From IMG/VR virus record IMGVR_UViG_3300005331_000001: DNA of 48,448 nt. One strand, written 5' to 3'. Both the position numbers and the translations under genes were made by a program. The stretch is from a virus. This document shows, in pieces, positions 3,741 through 44,702 of the stretch. Every line of letters starts with the position of its first letter. Within the stretch, counting starts at the first letter, position 1. Below the pieces are notes generated by a model. That model was not told the origin of the DNA and searched no databases. It was given only the letters and a program-made list of their open reading frames with translations.

Positions 3741-5032
3741 ATATTCAGCTCCCCACCAATTGCCGTTAGACCTGAAGTCGTTGCATTAGAGGCGTAGTAG
3801 AAGTTTGCGCTCTCAGGAACAACTATTGAAGAGTAACTACCTCGAATACCAGAGGTGCCACCTAGATTAATATTGATCATTGGCTGATTCGCAGAGTTAA
3901 TAGCGCCATAATTATTATTTGGCGCAGCGATAAGGCTAACTGTGCCCTCTGCAAACGCCGACAAAATAATTGAGGCGGAGTTAGGTGGAAAGAACCCCGA
4001 CAGACCAACTGGGATAAAGGTGGGTGCGGTTGGTGAACCGTTTACACCAGAAATCATAATTGGGAGTTTTGCGACGTTACTCCCGGTACGAACGACGTAT
4101 TGCCACTTGCGACCTGACTGAATAATGCTCAGCGGATATTTGTTCGCAGTCGCGTCAGTCAGAACCATTGATACCAAAGCGGCGTGTGTATAGCCGGCAG
4201 GAAGCGTAGGAGCTGTTGTGCTTAGCGATAGCAACCCGGCCTTGGTGGTCCCATTCCATATAACCCATACGGCGTACCATGTTGACGCTGTCTGGCTATT
4301 GGCCGCCCCGACATCCAAACCGTTCACACCAGCGCTCCCAAAAGAAGGCGTAACGGCGACTGCGCGAAGCGTTTGATAGGTGTTGGAGGAGGATTCAACC
4401 ATAAGCTCGTCAGCGCTTACGGTGACTACTGCGCTGGTGCCGGTCGTGGAAGCTTTCAGTCCGCTAAAGCACCCGCGCACGCCAACCAGGTTGGAGTTTG
4501 CGACTGGAAGCGGATCGAGAAGAACGGCATCCGTACCGTCGTACTCAACATCAGAGAGCTGGTCTACCGCGAATACGGCAGCAACTTTAGCGCCGGATGC
4601 GTCGTACTGTTTGAGGTTCTTAGGTCCGACTCCTGAAATATTGATAGTGTCAGTGCCGGTGCTGGCACGATTGAACTTCACTCGAAACCGCTGACCAGCC
4701 GAATAGGCCGTAATCGCCGGGGACGGTGTGAGCACCATCGCGGCCGAGGGACCTGTAGTGGGGAACGCGGTACCGTACTGGTTTTGCTTCAGTTTTAGAA
4801 GGGCATCGAAAAACTGGGAAGCTCCTACCTTATCTACCGATCCATTGGGGGTGATCCCTGCCAACGAAAGGAGTGACTGAAAAAAACCTTCCTTGTCGTT
4901 TGCCCAATCCTGTTCCAAGTAAGAGCCATCTTTCGCGCCAGGTGCTGTTCTATTTTTGAACGAGCCCTGCGGGTAGTCGGCCGACGGATTGTTGTATCTG
5001 CCCGGGTAGCGTTCATTAAGCTTCAGTGACAT
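3737..5032 (-). CDS. Tail fibre protein (431 aa)
   Basis: The N-terminus YPQGSFKNRTAPGAKDGSYLEQDWANDKEGFFQSLLSLAGITPNGSVDKVGASQFFDAL is typical of phage tail-fibre N-terminal domains. The C-terminus is rich in Gly, Ser and Thr. Confidence 0.75.
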   Translation of the reverse strand: MSLKLNERYPGRYNNPSADYPQGSFKNRTAPGAKDGSYLEQDWANDKEGFFQSLLSLAGITPNGSVDKVGASQFFDALLKLKQNQYGTAFPTTGPSAAMVLTPSPAITAYSAGQRFRVKFNRASTGTDTINISGVGPKNLKQYDASGAKVAAVFAVDQLSDVEYDGTDAVLLDPLPVANSNLVGVRGCFSGLKASTTGTSAVVTVSADELMVESSSNTYQTLRAVAVTPSFGSAGVNGLDVGAANSQTASTWYAVWVIWNGTTKAGLLSLSTTAPTLPAGYTHAALVSMVLTDATANKYPLSIIQSGRKWQYVVRTGSNVAKLPIMISGVNGSPTAPTFIPVGLSGFFPPNSASIILSAFAEGTVSLIAAPNNNYGAINSANQPMININLGGTSGIRGSYSSIVVPESANFYYASNATTSGLTAIGGELNI

Positions 5033-5033
5033 G

Positions 5034-5675
5034 TTAAGCCCCTATATATCCTGCAAATTCTGCGTCTTCGTCACCAAATTCAGCGTCTACGTCGCCGAAC
5101 TCGACCATTTCGAACCCCTCAAGGAATCCGTTAAATTTCACTGCTTGCGGCTTGGGCACCAGCCCCGCATTGAGCAAAGCGAACCTTTCAAGGTTGGTGA
5201 TCTGCCCATAAAACTCGATGCTGAACGACATGTCCTCGCCGTCAGTGACGCGCAGGACATCCGCCTTGGGCAGGAGGAAGTTCATTCCGTCAAGGATGTT
5301 TTCTATGGTGGCGTCGCCATTGTTTTTGACGATCTTGGCCTTGATGACTAGGCGATAGAGCTCGTCTGAAAGTTGCCCATCCTGGTCGATCGTCAGCGCG
5401 CTAAACATCGCATCGTCGTCACCAAACTCATCGCCATCCGTGAGATCGAACAGGCCCGGGTTCATCGGGAATGAGCCAACGAAGCTGCGAGGGGCAACGA
5501 CGATCCGGCCGATAACGTTCAACTGCTCACCGAAGACGTTGTCGATGTCATAGCTCTTGCGAACGGCCTCGGCAGCATCCTCAATGCTTCCACCCAGCTT
5601 CCGGGCGATCGCGAACCAGTCCACGGCTTTCGGTTTGTCGCGGTATTGCGCGTAAATGCGGTCTGGGATGTTCAT
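5034..5675 (-). CDS. Baseplate/tail protein (DUF2612-like), 213 aa
   Basis: It lies between the baseplate J-like gene and the tail fibre. The start is set at the ATG that overlaps the upstream stop codon (track start 5711). Confidence 0.55.
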   Translation of the reverse strand: MNIPDRIYAQYRDKPKAVDWFAIARKLGGSIEDAAEAVRKSYDIDNVFGEQLNVIGRIVVAPRSFVGSFPMNPGLFDLTDGDEFGDDDAMFSALTIDQDGQLSDELYRLVIKAKIVKNNGDATIENILDGMNFLLPKADVLRVTDGEDMSFSIEFYGQITNLERFALLNAGLVPKPQAVKFNGFLEGFEMVEFGDVDAEFGDEDAEFAGYIGA

Positions 5676-24571: not shown

Positions 24572-24936
24572 AGGGGGCACCAGGAATAAAAGGGCCGGTG
24601 TGGTCGGCCAAACGCTGGGGAGCAGCGGCAAATTGAATCAGCCCCGGCGGCACTCCCAGCTCGGGGCAATGGGTGTGGCGGGGCCGAAAACGAAAAGGCA
24701 CCGATCAATGTCGAGGCCCTGAATAGGTGCGCGCGTCTTTCCGCGCTGTCTGCCGAAGACGACCCAGGTGTCGACGCCCCAATGCATCGATCGCGCCCTT
24801 CCTGTCTCGCGCCACTCCACAAGCATGTGAGGTCAGAGTGCGCGGGCTGCCGGTGTTGATTCCGTACGCCGCACTATCCGGCTATCGACGTCCAGGCCTT
24901 CCCGAGGGCTGTCCTGGCTACAGGTGAAACTCAGGC

Positions 24937-39683: not shown

Positions 39684-39995
39684 ATGGCTGCCGCGCAGAA
39701 AGAACGATCAGCAAAGACTGCGGCGAGGCGAAAGACTCGCGGCGAGGAAGAGTTACGACTCCACACCATGGCTGGCACACGCCAGGCCTTGGCTGACCTA
39801 ATGGCCTGGCACGGTATCGAGGAACAGGGCGAGGCCATGACGCTGATGATTCACCACCTGCACGGCCTCGGCCCAGCAGGGTCAGCGCAGTTCCTCTCAC
39901 CGCCGCGACACGAATACGTGATACCCGAAAACGTGTCGGCAAAATTACTGCTCGCCTATAACCGCGAAGCTCTTCGCATCTGCCACGACGAATAA
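39684..39995 (+). CDS. Hypothetical protein (103 aa)
   Basis: A GAGG ribosome-binding site lies upstream. Confidence 0.5.
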   Translation: MAAAQKERSAKTAARRKTRGEEELRLHTMAGTRQALADLMAWHGIEEQGEAMTLMIHHLHGLGPAGSAQFLSPPRHEYVIPENVSAKLLLAYNREALRICHDE

Positions 39996-40052
39996 CGCAC
40001 CCTACTCGCTGCATCCGGTAACCGGAGGGCGGCGCCTATCTGAGGTAACCGC

Positions 40053-40664
40053 ATGAAAACCGAAATGATCACCCTGAAGCACGGCGACGTGTCTATCAAG
40101 ATGCCATCCAGTGCTCTGGCAAAACTGGCGATCGCCAGCGTGTTCGCCCAGGTGCTTCCGCCGGCGGCGAATGTGCAGCCAGTAGCGCCTTCCACTATCC
40201 CGGAGATCGGCCAACCGTGGCCGGGCCAGGGTGGGCTCAATGGCGGTTTGGTTCACGCTCGCGGTGACGTGCCAGCGCACTACCTGATCATCGCTGCAAC
40301 GGACGTTGGTAGTCTTGAGTGGGGCGGCCGCGGAGTCGAAGTGAAGGGCCTCAGCAAGACCGACGGCTACACCAACACCCAGGTGCTGATCGGTAACGAT
40401 GACGAGCGCGAGTATCCAGCCGCCGACGCGTGCGCCGAGTACCAGGCTGATGGTCACCACGACTTCTATCTGCCGGCTGCTGCCGAGCTGTACCAGGGCT
40501 GGCTTAACTGTCCCGAGGTGTTCGCACAGGACTGCTACTACTGGTCCTCTTCGCAGCGCTCAGCCTACTACGCTTTCCTCATGACCTTCGGTGATGGCAT
40601 TCAGCTCAACGGCGCCAAGGGCGGCGAGCTCCGTGTCCGCCCCGTCCGCAGATTCTTTATTTAA
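40053..40664 (+). CDS. DUF1566 (Lcl C-terminal / C-type-lectin-like) domain protein, paralog A (203 aa)
   Basis: ..DFYLPAAAELYQ...YYWSSSQRSAYYAFLMTFGDGIQLNGAKGGELRVRPVR is the DUF1566 C-terminal pattern. GAGG ribosome-binding site. Confidence 0.7.
   Translation: MKTEMITLKHGDVSIKMPSSALAKLAIASVFAQVLPPAANVQPVAPSTIPEIGQPWPGQGGLNGGLVHARGDVPAHYLIIAATDVGSLEWGGRGVEVKGLSKTDGYTNTQVLIGNDDEREYPAADACAEYQADGHHDFYLPAAAELYQGWLNCPEVFAQDCYYWSSSQRSAYYAFLMTFGDGIQLNGAKGGELRVRPVRRFFI
40539..40651 (+). repeat. VR-like 3' segment of paralog A
   Basis: It pairs with 41236..41348. Runs of 23 nt and 29 nt are identical and flank a 49-nt patch that differs almost only at the 1st and 2nd positions of nine codons. Confidence 0.6.
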
Positions 40665-40699
40665 TCCTTCATTCATTCGTTCTTGATCCGGCATACCAG

Positions 40700-40718
40700 G
40701 GCGCACAGCGCCTTTTTT
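40700..40718 (+). terminator. Terminator-like hairpin after paralog A
   Basis: GGCGC-ACA-GCGCC followed by TTTTTT. Confidence 0.6.
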
Positions 40719-40743
40719 GTTGCCTTCGAAAAGAGGAATCATC

Positions 40744-41364
40744 ATGTCCGCAGTTGAGAAAGCAGCACCAGCAATAGCCATCCCGGCCATCGGCCAGGCC
40801 TACGGCGGCGGTTTCGTCACCGGCATTACCCGCGACCCAGCCAACGGTAAGCGCTCCCTGCATATCACCGCCGGTGCTGAGCACGAGCTGGTCGGTGAAT
40901 GGGGCAAGTACGGCGAGAAGGTCGAAGGGGCCGACAGCTTTACCAACAGCCTGTCGAACACCCATGCTATGGCGGCGGCCGGTAGCGAACTGGCGATCAA
41001 GGTTCTGGCGCTGACCATTGGCGGGCACGCTGACTGGGCGATTCCGGCGCGAGATGTCCAGGAACTGCAATACCGTCACTTCAAGCCCACCACCGAAGAG
41101 AACTGGGCGAACTCACGCAATGGCGATAACCCGCACAGTGAACCTGTAGGCCAGCTGTACAGCGAGGAAGACCCTCTGCAAACCGTGCACGAAGCCTTCC
41201 AAGAAGGCGGCGCCGAAGCGTTTCGCGACACATGGTACTGGTCGAGTTCGCAGCGCTCAGCCTACTACGCATTCTTCATGTACTTCGTTGTTGGCCATCA
41301 GTTCTACGGCGGCAAGTTCGGCGAGCTCCGTGTCCGCCCCGTCCGCAGCGAACTTATTGATTAA
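40744..41364 (+). CDS. DUF1566 domain protein, paralog B (206 aa)
   Basis: ..WYWSSSQRSAYYAFFMYFVVGHQFYGGKFGELRVRPVR. AGAGGAA ribosome-binding site. The N-terminal two-thirds are strongly diverged from paralog A. Confidence 0.7.
   Translation: MSAVEKAAPAIAIPAIGQAYGGGFVTGITRDPANGKRSLHITAGAEHELVGEWGKYGEKVEGADSFTNSLSNTHAMAAAGSELAIKVLALTIGGHADWAIPARDVQELQYRHFKPTTEENWANSRNGDNPHSEPVGQLYSEEDPLQTVHEAFQEGGAEAFRDTWYWSSSQRSAYYAFFMYFVVGHQFYGGKFGELRVRPVRSELID
41236..41348 (+). repeat. VR-like 3' segment of paralog B
   Basis: See 40539..40651. Confidence 0.6.
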
Positions 41365-41378
41365 TTCGCTTATTTAAT

Positions 41379-41396
41379 CCGGCCGCTTGCGGCCGG
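41379..41396 (+). other. GC hairpin with a 7-bp stem and a 4-nt loop downstream of paralog B
   Basis: CCGGCCG-CTTG-CGGCCGG begins 31 bp after the VR-like segment. It could be a terminator or a DGR-type target-recognition hairpin. Confidence 0.5.
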
Positions 41397-41418
41397 TTGC
41401 TCTTGGAGAGCGAGCCAC

Positions 41419-41775
41419 ATGGCAATGCATACGGAACTTGCGATCTATAAGGCTTCGATGGGCCTGCTGCATATGGCCACAACGATGACCCGGAACATCC
41501 CCCGCGACCTGAAGCAGTCACTCGGCAAGCGAATGATCGACGAATGCATCGAAGTGCTGATGCTGATTGCACGTGCCAACGCAACCCAGGATAAACGGCC
41601 ACACCTGACCCTGCTGGTCGAGAAGGTGCAGGTAGTCGAGTTCCTGATGCGGCTCTTCAAATACAACCGCTTTATCAGCATCCCGCAACACGCCCAGGCA
41701 ATTGAGGTAACGGCTTCAATCGGCAAGCAAGCAAACGCCTGGAAACGCTCAACCCCAACCGCGCCCGCTACCTGA
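41419..41775 (+). CDS. Four-helix-bundle protein (23S rRNA intervening-sequence / Avd-like family, 118 aa)
   Basis: LAIYKASMGLLHMATTMTRNIPRDLKQSLGKRMIDECIEVLMLIARAN....L..L...VEFLMRL......IS..Q.......ASIGKQANAW matches the family's spacing pattern (recalled from memory). Confidence 0.55.
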   Translation: MAMHTELAIYKASMGLLHMATTMTRNIPRDLKQSLGKRMIDECIEVLMLIARANATQDKRPHLTLLVEKVQVVEFLMRLFKYNRFISIPQHAQAIEVTASIGKQANAWKRSTPTAPAT

Positions 41776-41944
41776 AGGTTACGGCTTTCTGGTCTGTGCG
41801 AATTGAATCTGGTCGTGCCGCTGACCTGATAGGTCACCGCCATGCGCATCAAAGATACCGCCGGTCTAAAGCGTCCGGGCAGGTCTCGCGCAGTTTCCTT
41901 GCTGATCGGCACTGCCTTCGGTTTGGCGATGTAGATAGCTCGAC

Positions 41945-41986
41945 AGGTCGCAGCGCTCCGACAACAACGCATATATTCAGAATTTC
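41945..41986 (+). other. A-rich relic resembling the 5' part of the VR segments (possible decayed template repeat)
   Basis: In my hand alignment 41948..41986 matches 41248..41286 at 27 of 39 positions. Seven of the 12 mismatches have A in this copy (TCGCAGCGCTCcGaCaACaACGCATaTaT..). Confidence 0.3.
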
Positions 41987-42004
41987 CACCGAGGATCTGC
42001 ACCA

Positions 42005-42625
42005 ATGGCAAAGTTTGAACCGGGCGAAACATTCGGGCGGCTCACCGTTACCCGCTGGGATAGCGCCTCATCCGTTCAGTGCATCTGCTCATGCGGAACA
42101 GCGTTCGTAGGGGTGGCGGGGAATATGCGTTCCGGCGCAACGCAAAGCTGCGGCTGTATCCGGAAAGAGAAAAACAATCACGTAACCCACGGGCATACCG
42201 GAAGCCTGACGCACAAGAGATGGCGGTCAATGCGTGCCAGGTGCCTGAATAAGAACGCCAGCAACTACCCGCAGTATGGCGGGTCCGGAATCGGCATCTG
42301 CGCAGAGTGGGATGACTTTGAGCGCTTCCTTTCGGACATGGGCGAATGCCCAGGGGAAGGCTTCACGCTGGACCGTGAGGATGGAAACAAAGGCTATTCG
42401 CCCGGCAACTGCCGCTGGGCAACAAGGGTTCAACAGGCCCGCAATCAGTCCACCAATAAGCTGATTACCTTCCGCGGCGAAACGCTCGGCCTGAGTGAGT
42501 GGGCCGAAAAGCTTGGAATCAAATCACAGACCATACAAAACCGGCTCCGGAAGGGCTGGTCGATTGATGAGGCGCTTGGCACGACCGGTGACGCCAGAGC
42601 TTTCCGAAAGAGTCGCGCCGAATAA
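42005..42625 (+). CDS. Zn-ribbon / AP2-like DNA-binding protein of a homing-endonuclease-associated type (206 aa)
   Basis: N-terminal FGRLTV...CICSCG...SCGC, then ..WRSMRARC...YGG.GI..C.EW..F..F..DMG and a C-terminal HTH-like LSEWAEKLGIKSQTIQNRLRKGWS. Confidence 0.5.
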   Translation: MAKFEPGETFGRLTVTRWDSASSVQCICSCGTAFVGVAGNMRSGATQSCGCIRKEKNNHVTHGHTGSLTHKRWRSMRARCLNKNASNYPQYGGSGIGICAEWDDFERFLSDMGECPGEGFTLDREDGNKGYSPGNCRWATRVQQARNQSTNKLITFRGETLGLSEWAEKLGIKSQTIQNRLRKGWSIDEALGTTGDARAFRKSRAE

Positions 42626-42807
42626 TCCCGCCAACAGCTACTTCGGTCTGCTCAGCCAGGCCAGCCATAGCGAGAAAGACCGGGCGGCACTCGCCCGCGT
42701 CGTGCTGAAGCGCGGCAACAGCGTCAACGCGGCGATGACCAAGACCTTTCAGAAGAAGTAATCCCACCCCCATATCAACGAATCACGCCAGCCGGCGAGG
42801 ATCCCCT

Positions 42808-43758
42808 ATGCCTATTCACAACATCGTCAGCATGAGCGGCGGTAAAGACAGCACTGCTACGCTGCTGGTCGCCCGCGAGCTGGAGGTGCCGAACCTCAGC
42901 GCTGTAGTGGCTGACACCGGGCATGAGCATCCAGAGACGTACGACTACATCCACTACCTGGCTGAAGCCACCGGCGTTCCCATTCGCTGGGTGAAGGCCG
43001 ACTTCTCCAGGCAGATCGCCGGCAAGCGCAAATTCATCGAGACCAAGTGGCGCGAAAAAGGTGTGCCGGAATCGGTGGTTCTGGGTGCTTTAGAAGTCCT
43101 GAACCCAACCGGCAACCCGTTTCTGGACTTGTGCCTTTGGAAAGGTCGATTCCCCAGCACCAAAGCCCGCTTCTGCACCGACGAGCTCAAGCGCAATCCG
43201 ATCATCGAGCAGGTTTACCTGCCGCTCATGGACGGCGAGAACATGCTGCTTTCTTGGCAAGGCGTTCGGGCTGATGAGTCGCCGGCCCGCAAGTACCTAC
43301 CAGAGTGCGATGAGGTTGGAGGCGGCCTGTTCAACTACCGACCAATTTTGAAATGGACGGTTGATTCGGTATTCGAGGCTCACCGGGCCGCCGGCATCAA
43401 GCCGAACCCGCTGTACTTGCAAGGCTGCAATCGCGTTGGCTGCATGCCCTGCATTATGTGCGCGAAAGACGAGCTCCGGCAGATCGCAGCCAGATGGCCA
43501 GAGGAAGTAGACCGGGTGCGCGAATGGGAGCGGCTGGTGAGCATCGCCAGCAAGCGCGGTGCGGCCACGTTCTTTGCCACCGTGACCGACCCCACCGTCC
43601 GTTCAGATGACAAGGTGAGCGCCGTCACGCACGGAATTGACAGGATTGTCGACTGGAGCAACACCGCGCGCGGCGGCCGCCAGTTCGACATGGTCGACCT
43701 CATCGCCCGCACCGACAGCCAGAACAGCTGCTCTTCAGCCTACGGGCTTTGCGAATAA
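42808..43758 (+). CDS. PAPS-reductase-family (PP-loop ATPase) protein, IbrA/DndC-like (316 aa)
   Basis: PP-loop SMSGGKDST, plus a C-terminal Cys cluster (GCNRVGCMPCIMC). Confidence 0.75.
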   Translation: MPIHNIVSMSGGKDSTATLLVARELEVPNLSAVVADTGHEHPETYDYIHYLAEATGVPIRWVKADFSRQIAGKRKFIETKWREKGVPESVVLGALEVLNPTGNPFLDLCLWKGRFPSTKARFCTDELKRNPIIEQVYLPLMDGENMLLSWQGVRADESPARKYLPECDEVGGGLFNYRPILKWTVDSVFEAHRAAGIKPNPLYLQGCNRVGCMPCIMCAKDELRQIAARWPEEVDRVREWERLVSIASKRGAATFFATVTDPTVRSDDKVSAVTHGIDRIVDWSNTARGGRQFDMVDLIARTDSQNSCSSAYGLCE

Positions 43759-43802
43759 CTCCCCCACTCCACCGCCCGGGCATGGCCCGGCAGGAACTCG
43801 TA

Positions 43803-44702
43803 ATGTCCATATCTCAGGCAAAGCTGAAAGAGCTGCTGCATTACAACCCGGTAACCGGCGTGTTCACCTGGGTTATTGGCCGCAGCCGAACTGCCGCCGG
43901 TACCGCGGCGAACACCAAAGACCGGAAGGGCTATTTGAAAGTGGTAATCGACAAGAAGCCCTACTACCTACATCGACTCGCGTTCCTGTTTATGGTCGGC
44001 GAGTTTCCTCCTGACCTGGTTGATCACATAAACGGCGATCGCGCGGACAACAGGTGGAGCAACCTCAGGCCTGCCACTTACTTGGAAAACGCCAGGAACC
44101 AAAAACTCAATAGCGGGAACCTGACCGGTGTTCGCGGCGTTTCCTGGGATGAGCGTTCAAGCTGGAAGGCATACGCCTATCAAAACAACAGGCAGATTTT
44201 CCTCGGAAGGTTCGAGTCTCTGTTTGAGGCCGCAGCGGCGCGGAAATCGTTCGAGTTGCAGCACAAGTACCACGGCAACCACGGCCGCAACCCGGTGACC
44301 ATGCGCAGCAAAATCCCTGTCGTGTATGTGGCCGGCCCATACCGGGCATCCAGTCGGGAAAAGATTGCTGACAACATCCTGGCAGCTCGGGCTGTAGCCG
44401 TTGCCACGGCACGACTTGGTTGGTTTCCGCTCTGCCCACACACCAACACTGCGCACTTCGATGACGACCTACCCGATCAAGACCAATTCTTCCTTGAGGG
44501 CACCCTGGCGCTGATGGAGCGATGCGACGCAGTCGTCCTAATTGATGGTTGGCGGTACAGCGCCGGAACGCTGGGCGAGGTGCATCGGGCGCGCGAACTG
44601 GGGATGCCGATCTTCGCCTGCCTGGAGGATTTGCCCACAGCCGAAGAGTTCTCCGGCATGACGATGAATCCTGAAAATCCCGAAGCGAGGAATGCATCGT
44701 GA
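43803..44702 (+). CDS. Single ORF fusing HNH endonuclease, an AP2 domain and a DUF4406 (nucleoside 2-deoxyribosyltransferase-like) domain (299 aa)
   Basis: The HNH_3 part is GYLKVVIDKKPYYLHRLAFL..VDHINGDRADNRWSNLR. The AP2 part is GVRGVSWDERSSWKAYAYQNNRQIFLGRFES. From the in-frame ATG at 44301 the DUF4406 part is IPVVYVAGPY...CDAVVLIDGWRYSAGTLGEVHRARELGMPIF. Confidence 0.65.
   Translation: MSISQAKLKELLHYNPVTGVFTWVIGRSRTAAGTAANTKDRKGYLKVVIDKKPYYLHRLAFLFMVGEFPPDLVDHINGDRADNRWSNLRPATYLENARNQKLNSGNLTGVRGVSWDERSSWKAYAYQNNRQIFLGRFESLFEAAAARKSFELQHKYHGNHGRNPVTMRSKIPVVYVAGPYRASSREKIADNILAARAVAVATARLGWFPLCPHTNTAHFDDDLPDQDQFFLEGTLALMERCDAVVLIDGWRYSAGTLGEVHRARELGMPIFACLEDLPTAEEFSGMTMNPENPEARNAS

Follow-up and report, generated by a model that had tools for sequence, protein, structure and literature searches.

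The locus at positions 40,053 to 42,004 of the viral DNA record IMGVR_UViG_3300005331_000001 (48,448 nucleotides; this whole stretch is called the window below) raises the question of how two adjacent genes with templated-looking variation at their 3' ends, followed by a gene resembling avd, came to stand in a place where a reverse transcriptase (RT) is missing. In the diversity-generating retroelement (DGR) of the Bordetella phage BPP-1, the RT together with Avd copies the RNA of a template repeat (TR) into cDNA, misreading template adenines, and this cDNA replaces a variable repeat (VR) at the 3' end of the target gene; the replacement is directed by the G+C-rich end of the VR and by a hairpin downstream of it. 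The most probable answer in our view, to which we would assign a probability of about 85%, is that the region represents a DGR of a Pseudomonas prophage from which the RT and nearly the whole template have gone, with a mobile gene of the HNH-nuclease type in their place. Such a locus is a known kind of system soon after its inactivation, and it involves no new diversification mechanism. Among the three explanations put forward in the initial annotation of this DNA, this is the first, a DGR decapitated by a homing-endonuclease-type gene, and it is borne out by intact syntenic relatives, by VR mismatches confined to template adenines, by the swap for an HNH cassette and by a remnant of the 3' end of the RT gene.

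Searching phage records by megablast brought out two relatives in which the element is complete, Pseudomonas phages SC_8_H2H8_2017 (L002, MT121966; SC_8 in what follows) and Cruim01 (L001, PP179333). In each of them, target A is followed by target B, avd, RT-15 RNA, TR and a gene for a 386-amino-acid RT (that of SC_8 matches Pfam RVT_1 with 61.6 bits), and the canonical arrangement target(VR)-avd-TR-RT, which had been proposed for the window, is thus the actual gene order of its intact relatives. The first bases of the TR coincide with the last ones of the RT-15 RNA, and farther on the TR overlaps the beginning of the RT frame; the mismatches between the VRs of each phage and its own TR all fall, inside the repeat, on template adenines. 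We also observed that the annotated ATG of the RT frame lies inside the TR (TR and RT frame at 4951..5055 and 4991..6151 in L002, and at 5402..5506 and 5442..6602 in L001); the first ~20 RT codons are TR sequence, and there is no spacer between TR and RT. The records of both phages are without a DGR annotation, and our literature search found no DGR description for Cruim01, the paper on which makes no mention of a DGR.

The left part of the locus in the window contains the following features:

40053..40664, + strand: target gene A, encoding a 203-amino-acid variable protein of the DUF1566/Lcl_C type (Pfam Lcl_C E 2.9e-5, below the cut-off; PHROG 4245, 2.6e-30)
40551..40655, + strand: VR_A, ending in the G+C-rich segment that it has in common with the TR (17/17 mismatches at adenines of the SC_8_H2H8_2017 TR)
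40698..40714, + strand: hairpin followed by a T run, terminator-like, downstream of VR_A (7 pairs, 5 of them G-C, with a 3-nt loop, then TTTTTGTT)
40744..41364, + strand: target gene B, encoding a 206-amino-acid variable protein of the DUF1566/Lcl_C type (Pfam Lcl_C E 3e-6, below the cut-off; PHROG 4245, 1.3e-27)
41248..41348, + strand: VR_B (18/18 mismatches to the SC_8 TR at adenines, over the first 98 nt, 41248..41345)
41379..41396, + strand: G+C-rich hairpin of the target-recognition type, CCGGCCG-CTTG-CGGCCGG (7 G-C pairs, 4-nt loop; 30 nt past VR_B)
41419..41775, + strand: avd, DGR accessory variability determinant, 118 amino acids, frame intact (Pfam bAvd 47.4 bits against a cut-off of 40; PHROG 3206 'Avd protein of DGR', 5.5e-30)
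41759..41950, + strand: RT-15 RNA (Rfam RF03018), between avd and TR, a chimera of two DGR subfamilies (174.3 bits against a gathering score of 82)

The description of the first two genes as adjacent DUF1566 paralogues holds in its main part. PHROG 4245 is matched strongly and the names of homologues agree: the 925 homologues of target A are called DUF1566 or Lcl domain proteins of Pseudomonas by NCBI, and many close homologues of the targets carry precomputed PF07603 matches as well as DUF1566 names. The Pfam Lcl_C scores are below the cut-off (24.8 and 27.9 bits against 34.9), a search of PDB with the target profile gave 8q4e_A as the sole match (E 0.012), and the lectin-like fold that had been suggested for these proteins is unconfirmed.

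At the 3' ends of the two genes we re-found the identical runs described earlier, 40551..40573 = 41248..41270 (23 nt) and 40623..40651 = 41320..41348 (29 nt), and a recount of the 49 nt between them gave 13 differing positions, 12 of which are at codon position 1 or 2. Substitutions at these positions of AAC-type codons, in VRs placed at the 3' end of a gene, are a feature of DGRs. The footprint of adenine mutagenesis that had been suspected from this pattern became direct when the TR of relatives was used for comparison, as the VRs of the window differ from it at template adenines only. All 35 differences from the SC_8 TR lie on its 31 adenines among 98 positions; VR_A has no change at the 67 other positions, and the hypergeometric p-value for such adenine-only mismatches is 5.8e-11 for VR_A and 1.0e-11 for VR_B. 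It follows that the VRs of the window were written by a DGR with a TR identical to that of SC_8 at every non-adenine position. The end of the TR in this family reads ...GAGCTCCGTGTCCGCCCCGTCCGC.

It could be argued that the 3' segments are those of ordinary paralogues under gene conversion, that the codon pattern arose from selection and that there is no retroelement in their history, for the genes are indeed adjacent paralogues with a common conserved 3' end. However, the confinement of 35 of 35 VR differences to TR adenines (31 of 98 positions), the synteny of the locus with complete DGRs, and the survival of avd and the DGR RNA alongside a TR stub and an RT remnant leave this explanation with a probability close to nil.

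The G+C hairpins reported after both segments were confirmed, the one at 41379..41396 with its 7-bp stem and 4-nt loop. Throughout the family, a perfect hairpin of at least 6 bp stands ~31-35 nt past the repeat in 95 of 199 unique VRs, with compensatory variants of the stem, and in 2 of 62 TRs. The hairpin of this DGR family is thus VR-specific and agrees with the target hairpin of BPP-1, though its loop is CTTG.

What has happened to the TR and RT can be read from the alignment with SC_8. Positions 39992..41972 of the window are collinear with L002 3001..4975, and 42630..42765 with L002 6020..6156, the last 137 nt of the RT gene; between these blocks, 1,045 nt of TR and RT have been swapped for an HNH cassette of 658 nt. 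This part of the locus comprises:

41871..41910, no strand: candidate zone of recombination crossover, the left end of the tract that would have been imported with the HNH cassette (segment-wise identities)
41948..41971, + strand: TR stub, the first 24 nt of a template repeat (22/24 identical to intact TRs; collinearity with SC_8 stops at 41972)
41972..42629, + strand: cassette of an HNH-family endonuclease gene, with a leader containing a ribosome-binding site and an open reading frame (ORF) at 42005..42625 of 206 amino acids (PHROG 374 'HNH endonuclease', 8.6e-62)
42630..42761, + strand: 3' remnant of the DGR RT gene, codons 344-386 and stop (tblastn 93% identity to residues 344-386 of the SC_8 RT, E 3e-18 / 1e-19)

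From 41972 on, the sequence TATATTCAGAATTTCCACCGAGG... is the leader of the HNH cassette, and it recurs in L140 after a truncated avd, where there is no TR. The initial annotation had seen a decayed TR in 41948..41986, with a match to VR-B at 27 of 39 positions. This match was reproduced, but only the 24 nt at 41948..41971 are TR and the remainder is cassette leader. Relic positions 26-40 were also considered as a TR of the Cruim01 type, which is ruled out by L140, where that stretch belongs to the HNH cassette. Similarly, the statement that there is no RT-like ORF is correct as regards a whole RT, but the 43-codon 3' remnant, 91% identical to L002 6020..6156 by blastn, had been overlooked. 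Beyond this remnant (42630..42758), tblastn with a family RT as query and E up to 10 found no RT similarity in the window. On the right, all copies of the cassette have the same junction with the RT gene, at codon 344. A 64-amino-acid ORF called at 42567..42761 overlaps the 3' end of the HNH gene and consists mainly of the RT remnant.

The missing RT is accounted for by a visible replacement with remnants on both sides, which makes unnecessary another of the explanations offered earlier, an unrecognised templated diversification that works without an RT, for example through the HNH protein. Nothing specific speaks for such a mechanism, only the absence of an RT from the window, whereas the VRs show the adenine-specific pattern that is standard among RT-bearing family members and the HNH cassette is absent from 57 active-looking loci; we consider it highly improbable.

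The assignment of the 118-amino-acid protein to the Avd family was sound, as shown by the Pfam bAvd score above the cut-off and by the match to PHROG 3206; with NCBIfam DivGenRetAVD it scores 49 bits, below the cut-off of 80. The RT-15 RNA had been overlooked. This motif was published without an assigned role (PMC5737381). In the Rfam scan it was found with 188 bits in L001 (5212..5404), 178 in L002 (4762..4953) and 174 in the window; it is present in 13 of 13 scanned loci with a whole avd and absent from two in which avd is truncated. Its 5' end overlaps the stop codon of avd, its 3' end overlaps the first TR bases, and in every intact family member examined it lies between avd and TR.

In the window, this RNA is composed of two parts. 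Positions 41419..41870 are of the subfamily-1 type (45/45 identical to L118 over the last 45 nt), and positions 41901..41947 are 47/47 identical to L138 and 46/47 to L157, both of subfamily 2, compared with 40-41/47 for SC_8 and L118; within the subfamily of L138, the loci L157 and L167 are intact. In the long-range helix of RT-15, the window has U.U in place of the U-A of subfamily 1 and the A-U of subfamily 2, and the compensatory change between the subfamilies supports this predicted helix. Since the 3' part of the chimeric RNA is that of subfamily 2, the cassette would have come from a subfamily-2 donor together with ~70 nt of left flank, TR stub included. The opposite direction of transfer, with L138 as the recipient of a window-like left flank, is ruled out by the intact subfamily-2 loci L157 and L167; it is the window that carries a subfamily-2 flank. 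The TR stub, then, most probably came in with the cassette from the other subfamily and is not left over from the TR which wrote the VRs of the window. As to variation among the stubs, that of L118/L137 reads CCTACTAC, compared with CCAACAAC in the others, and TACTAC occurs also in two intact TRs of the survey; because the VRs of L118 have A or G at the differing positions, the stub of L118 did not write them.

The protein encoded by the cassette matches three PHROG 'HNH endonuclease' families, 374, 3377 and 2081, at 1e-33 to 1e-62. Of its previous designation as an HNH/AP2-type gene (42005..42625), the HNH part is retained through PHROG, and neither HNH nor AP2 is matched in Pfam. Eight distinct copies of this window-type gene were available (in the window, L118, L149 (= L041), L150, L155, L138, L140 and L153). 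All are in one slot, between avd or a TR stub and RT codon 344, and none is found in the 57 intact loci. Between copies, the ratio of nonsynonymous to synonymous divergence (dN/dS) is ~0.05 with synonymous divergence (dS) up to 0.9, which indicates an old gene under selection. Two pairs of loci show how differently the gene and its surroundings have diverged:

Window and L118: HNH gene 1/618 nt different, dS 0.007; avd dS 0.088; RT remnant 13/129 nt different, all synonymous, dS 0.69
L149 and L150: HNH gene 0/618 nt different, dS 0.000; avd dS 0.26; RT remnant dS 0.57

Counted from the start codon of the HNH gene, the identical blocks span -38 to +635 and -60 to +650, which corresponds to the cassette and some tens of bases besides; identity ends within ~40-60 nt of the cassette on its left and within ~10-25 nt on its right. 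In L138 the HNH gene is 98% identical, yet Avd is 51% and the targets are 31-41% identical. The dN/dS of the remnants in HNH loci is mostly 0.1-0.3 (range 0.00-0.34, 28 pairs), compared with 0.13 for the same 43 codons in 46 intact RTs. This closeness to intact RTs indicates that the remnants diverged inside working RTs and that each locus gained the cassette separately. As far as can be judged from sequence, the cassette is mobile. Scans of metagenome and viral contigs for its junctions added one copy only, which was uninformative, and PDB sequence searches with the HNH and Avd proteins gave nothing useful. The 158-amino-acid members of protein cluster P0121, at one time taken for HNH proteins, proved to be DUF1566 target proteins and led to an intact subfamily-2 DGR.

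The DGR to which the locus belongs is a member of a large family residing in the early region of temperate Pseudomonas phages. Scans for the VR end yielded more than 119 stretches in IMG/VR and, with one genome per species, 13 stretches in 9 Pseudomonas species (the host of the window is outside this set); homologues of the family RT number more than 6,000 at E <= 1e-40. In 139 VRs that have a TR of their own, 1,980 of 2,073 mismatches are at template adenines, and the VRs of RT-less HNH loci differ from the best family TR at adenines only. Evaluation was possible for 67 loci (IMG/VR and genomes) in which the sequence continues far enough past target B. Of these, 57 have avd and a full RT, five have avd, the HNH gene and an RT remnant, two lack an RT and have a truncated avd, and in three the place is taken by another gene, of the NUMOD4 and HNH_3 type described below.

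The window-type gene is not the only one that has entered this module. A second HNH type, a shorter relative of it, occupies the same slot in L016 and L094. In phage Aurca01 (L003 4843..5334), and likewise in L112, L023, L026, L052 and L106, a gene with NUMOD4 and HNH_3 domains, unrelated to the HNH gene of the window, replaces avd, the RNA, TR and RT, with a 3' remnant of the RT left behind; these domains rule out the annotation of the Aurca01 gene as 'RecB'. The combination of NUMOD4 and HNH_3 is typical of phage homing-type endonucleases. All replacement variants retain about the last 30-50 RT codons. Thus, HNH genes of three kinds, two of which have no sequence relationship, have replaced TR and RT in this family.

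Two further observations on the family concern its layout. A third DUF1566 target, 40-55% identical to target A and with the same VR end, lies 2-6.5 kb from the core in L005, L010, L066, L076, L085, L087, L113, L116, L125 and L131/L135. In L130 (P. gregormendelii contig 10), an otherwise intact DGR, ~3 kb separates avd from TR, which suggests an insertion between the RNA and the TR region.

A separate problem is whether the VRs of the window are still being rewritten. The orphan set of VR ends, hairpins, avd and RT-15 RNA has remained intact and might be diversified in trans by the RT and TR of a related DGR, carried by a further prophage in the host or by a phage that superinfects it. Targets of BPP-1 were rewritten in trans by plasmid donors (PMC3240598), and DGRs of the present family act on the third target, 2-6.5 kb off (L005, L010, L066, L076, L085, L087, L113, L116). 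Coexistence is documented too: P. palmensis BBB001 has two family DGRs in one genome (L125, L136), Pseudomonas sp. GXZC has two RT clusters on one contig of 7,059,625 bp, and P. gorinensis has an intact DGR at ~2.03 Mb and, ~630 kb apart at ~2.67 Mb, a target cluster without RT or Avd, whose two VRs fit the TR with mismatches that are, save one, at adenines only. Moreover, the window and L118 differ at 1/498 nt in the scaffold of target A and 1/658 nt in the HNH cassette, yet their VR_A copies differ at 21 sites, 20 of which are template adenines. This last comparison is, however, explained equally well by a single recombination tract from VR_A through target B, given that target B differs at 63/500 nt and that the intergenic spacer is conserved family-wide, and the RT remnants show that the window and L118 gained the cassette separately. 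No RT or TR of this host came to light in the genomes scanned, among which the host itself was not included. In addition, two L118-type phage deposits (ENA, JGI) are identical over 10.6 kb including the VRs, and the Logan assembly of run SRR5451578 agrees with the window over 7 kb without any difference; the members of each pair may or may not be independent samples, and these identical copies in other deposits speak weakly for frozen VRs. On balance, continued service in trans seems to us distinctly unlikely.

Several points weigh against the reading of the locus as a DGR inactivated by a mobile nuclease gene. A helper RT elsewhere in the host is possible. The AlphaFold model of target A, built from an alignment of 32 sequences, has a mean confidence score (pLDDT) of 42 and is unusable, hence the lack of confirmation for the lectin-like fold. 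The cassette protein has no sequence match in Pfam, NCBIfam or PDB, its designation as HNH comes through PHROG families only, and both its nuclease activity and its cleavage site are putative. The dS estimates for the RT remnants come from only 129 nt and are noisy, and the low dN/dS of the remnant could also reflect a function of the remnant itself, in the form of the 64-amino-acid ORF, although the low ratio of this ORF is most simply explained as inherited from the RT.

With these reservations, the preferred reading, inactivation of a resident DGR by a mobile cassette, can be set out as a series of events. The intact element would have consisted of target A with VR_A, target B with VR_B, avd, the RT-15 RNA, TR and RT, the RT frame beginning inside the TR, and this resident DGR would have written both VRs by adenine-specific copying of its TR before the loss. 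The 658-nt HNH-family cassette may then have recombined in from a DGR of another subfamily, and ~70 nt to its left (the 3' part of the RT-15 RNA with the 24-nt TR stub) would have come with it. From position 25 on, the resident TR would have been lost by replacement, as would RT codons 1-343. In doing so, the cassette would act like a free-standing homing-endonuclease gene that repeatedly turns intact DGR alleles into dead ones. As an outcome, the locus could no longer diversify itself, and its two VRs would be frozen as they were last written. As avd, the RNA, the VR ends and the hairpins have stayed intact, the loss seems to be recent. Of the features that define a DGR, the RT gene and the TR are missing from the window, and VRs, avd, the VR end with its hairpin and synteny with complete DGRs are found there; the locus is therefore best classed as a recently inactivated DGR.

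A broader proposal, tentative and in our estimate rather unlikely, takes the cassettes as its subject. According to it, the HNH-type cassettes, of at least three kinds with two unrelated in sequence, would be selfish elements that home specifically to the TR-RT module of this family and spread by killing active DGRs in co-infection, and the RT-less sets of VRs, Avd and RNA would stay rewritable in trans as satellite targets.

Some neighbouring features of the window may be mentioned. A PAPS-reductase-like gene at 42808..43758 is absent from this position in SC_8, and is thus another mosaic insertion. It is followed at 43749..44702 by a gene in which HNH_3/AP2 is fused to a nucleoside 2-deoxyribosyltransferase-like domain (DUF7768); this is the second gene of the endonuclease type within 2 kb. 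Farther away, at 24845..24923 on the - strand, the Rfam Proteo-phage-1 RNA (RF03044) was found with 76.8 bits against a gathering score of 42.

The significance of these findings is several-fold. Apparent templated variation without an RT is explained without a new mechanism. A very large DGR family of temperate Pseudomonas phages is unannotated in the phage records examined, and its targets are two small DUF1566 proteins of the early region rather than tail fibres. The orphan Rfam motif RT-15 can now be assigned to a DGR, in a position 5' of the TR. Of moderate interest is that nuclease genes have repeatedly taken the place of TR and RT in a manner resembling homing: about 15% of the loci that could be evaluated are without TR and RT, mostly through a nuclease-gene cassette, which makes this a recurrent route of DGR death and a case in which one selfish element destroys another from which the carrier benefits. 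DGR finders that depend on the RT overlook such frozen target sets. Our literature search found no description of a DGR RT replaced by nuclease genes.

Among known systems, the DGRs of SC_8_H2H8_2017 and Cruim01 are nearest to the locus. They have in common with it the gene order, the two DUF1566 targets, RT-15, the sequence of VR and TR with its G+C-rich end, the hairpin after VR_B, and the position in the early region between recombination genes and the integrase; the Avd protein of the window is 93% and 69% identical, respectively, to theirs. The difference is that both phages keep a full TR of ~105 nt and the 386-amino-acid RT, and the window has the HNH cassette instead.

The prototype BPP-1 DGR (mtd-avd-TR-brt) resembles the present one in the adenine-specific transfer from TR to VR, in Avd, and in a VR at the 3' end with a G+C-rich tract. 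Downstream of its VR there is a G+C-rich hairpin of 7-10 bp with a 4-nt loop, GRNA (PMC3240598), in place of the CTTG of the window family. BPP-1 diversifies a single tail-fibre target of the Mtd-type lectin fold, whereas the window family has two small DUF1566-type targets of the early region; its structured RNA (RT-10, spacer) is 3' of the TR, and RT-15 is 5' of it. The overlap of TR with the start of the RT frame is another trait of the window family that BPP-1 does not have, the window itself being without the RT. By their DUF1566 class, the targets resemble that of the Legionella pneumophila DGR and the 'category d' (DUF1566/CLec2) targets, about half of which are short and consist of that domain alone (Wu et al. 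2018, PMC5758913). Legionella LdtA is a surface lipoprotein, while the targets of the window are without an evident signal peptide or lipobox on inspection by eye only.

The cassette finds its closest parallel in the free-standing homing endonuclease genes of phages, such as segB of T4 (PMC2330249). Like these, it occupies a single fixed site in some phages and is missing there from related ones, spreads with short flanks, has a phylogeny discordant with that of its neighbours and is under purifying selection. Unlike in their case, the allele bearing the nuclease gene, whose activity is here a prediction, lacks ~1 kb of the alternative allele, namely TR and RT, so that its spread would destroy a functional element.

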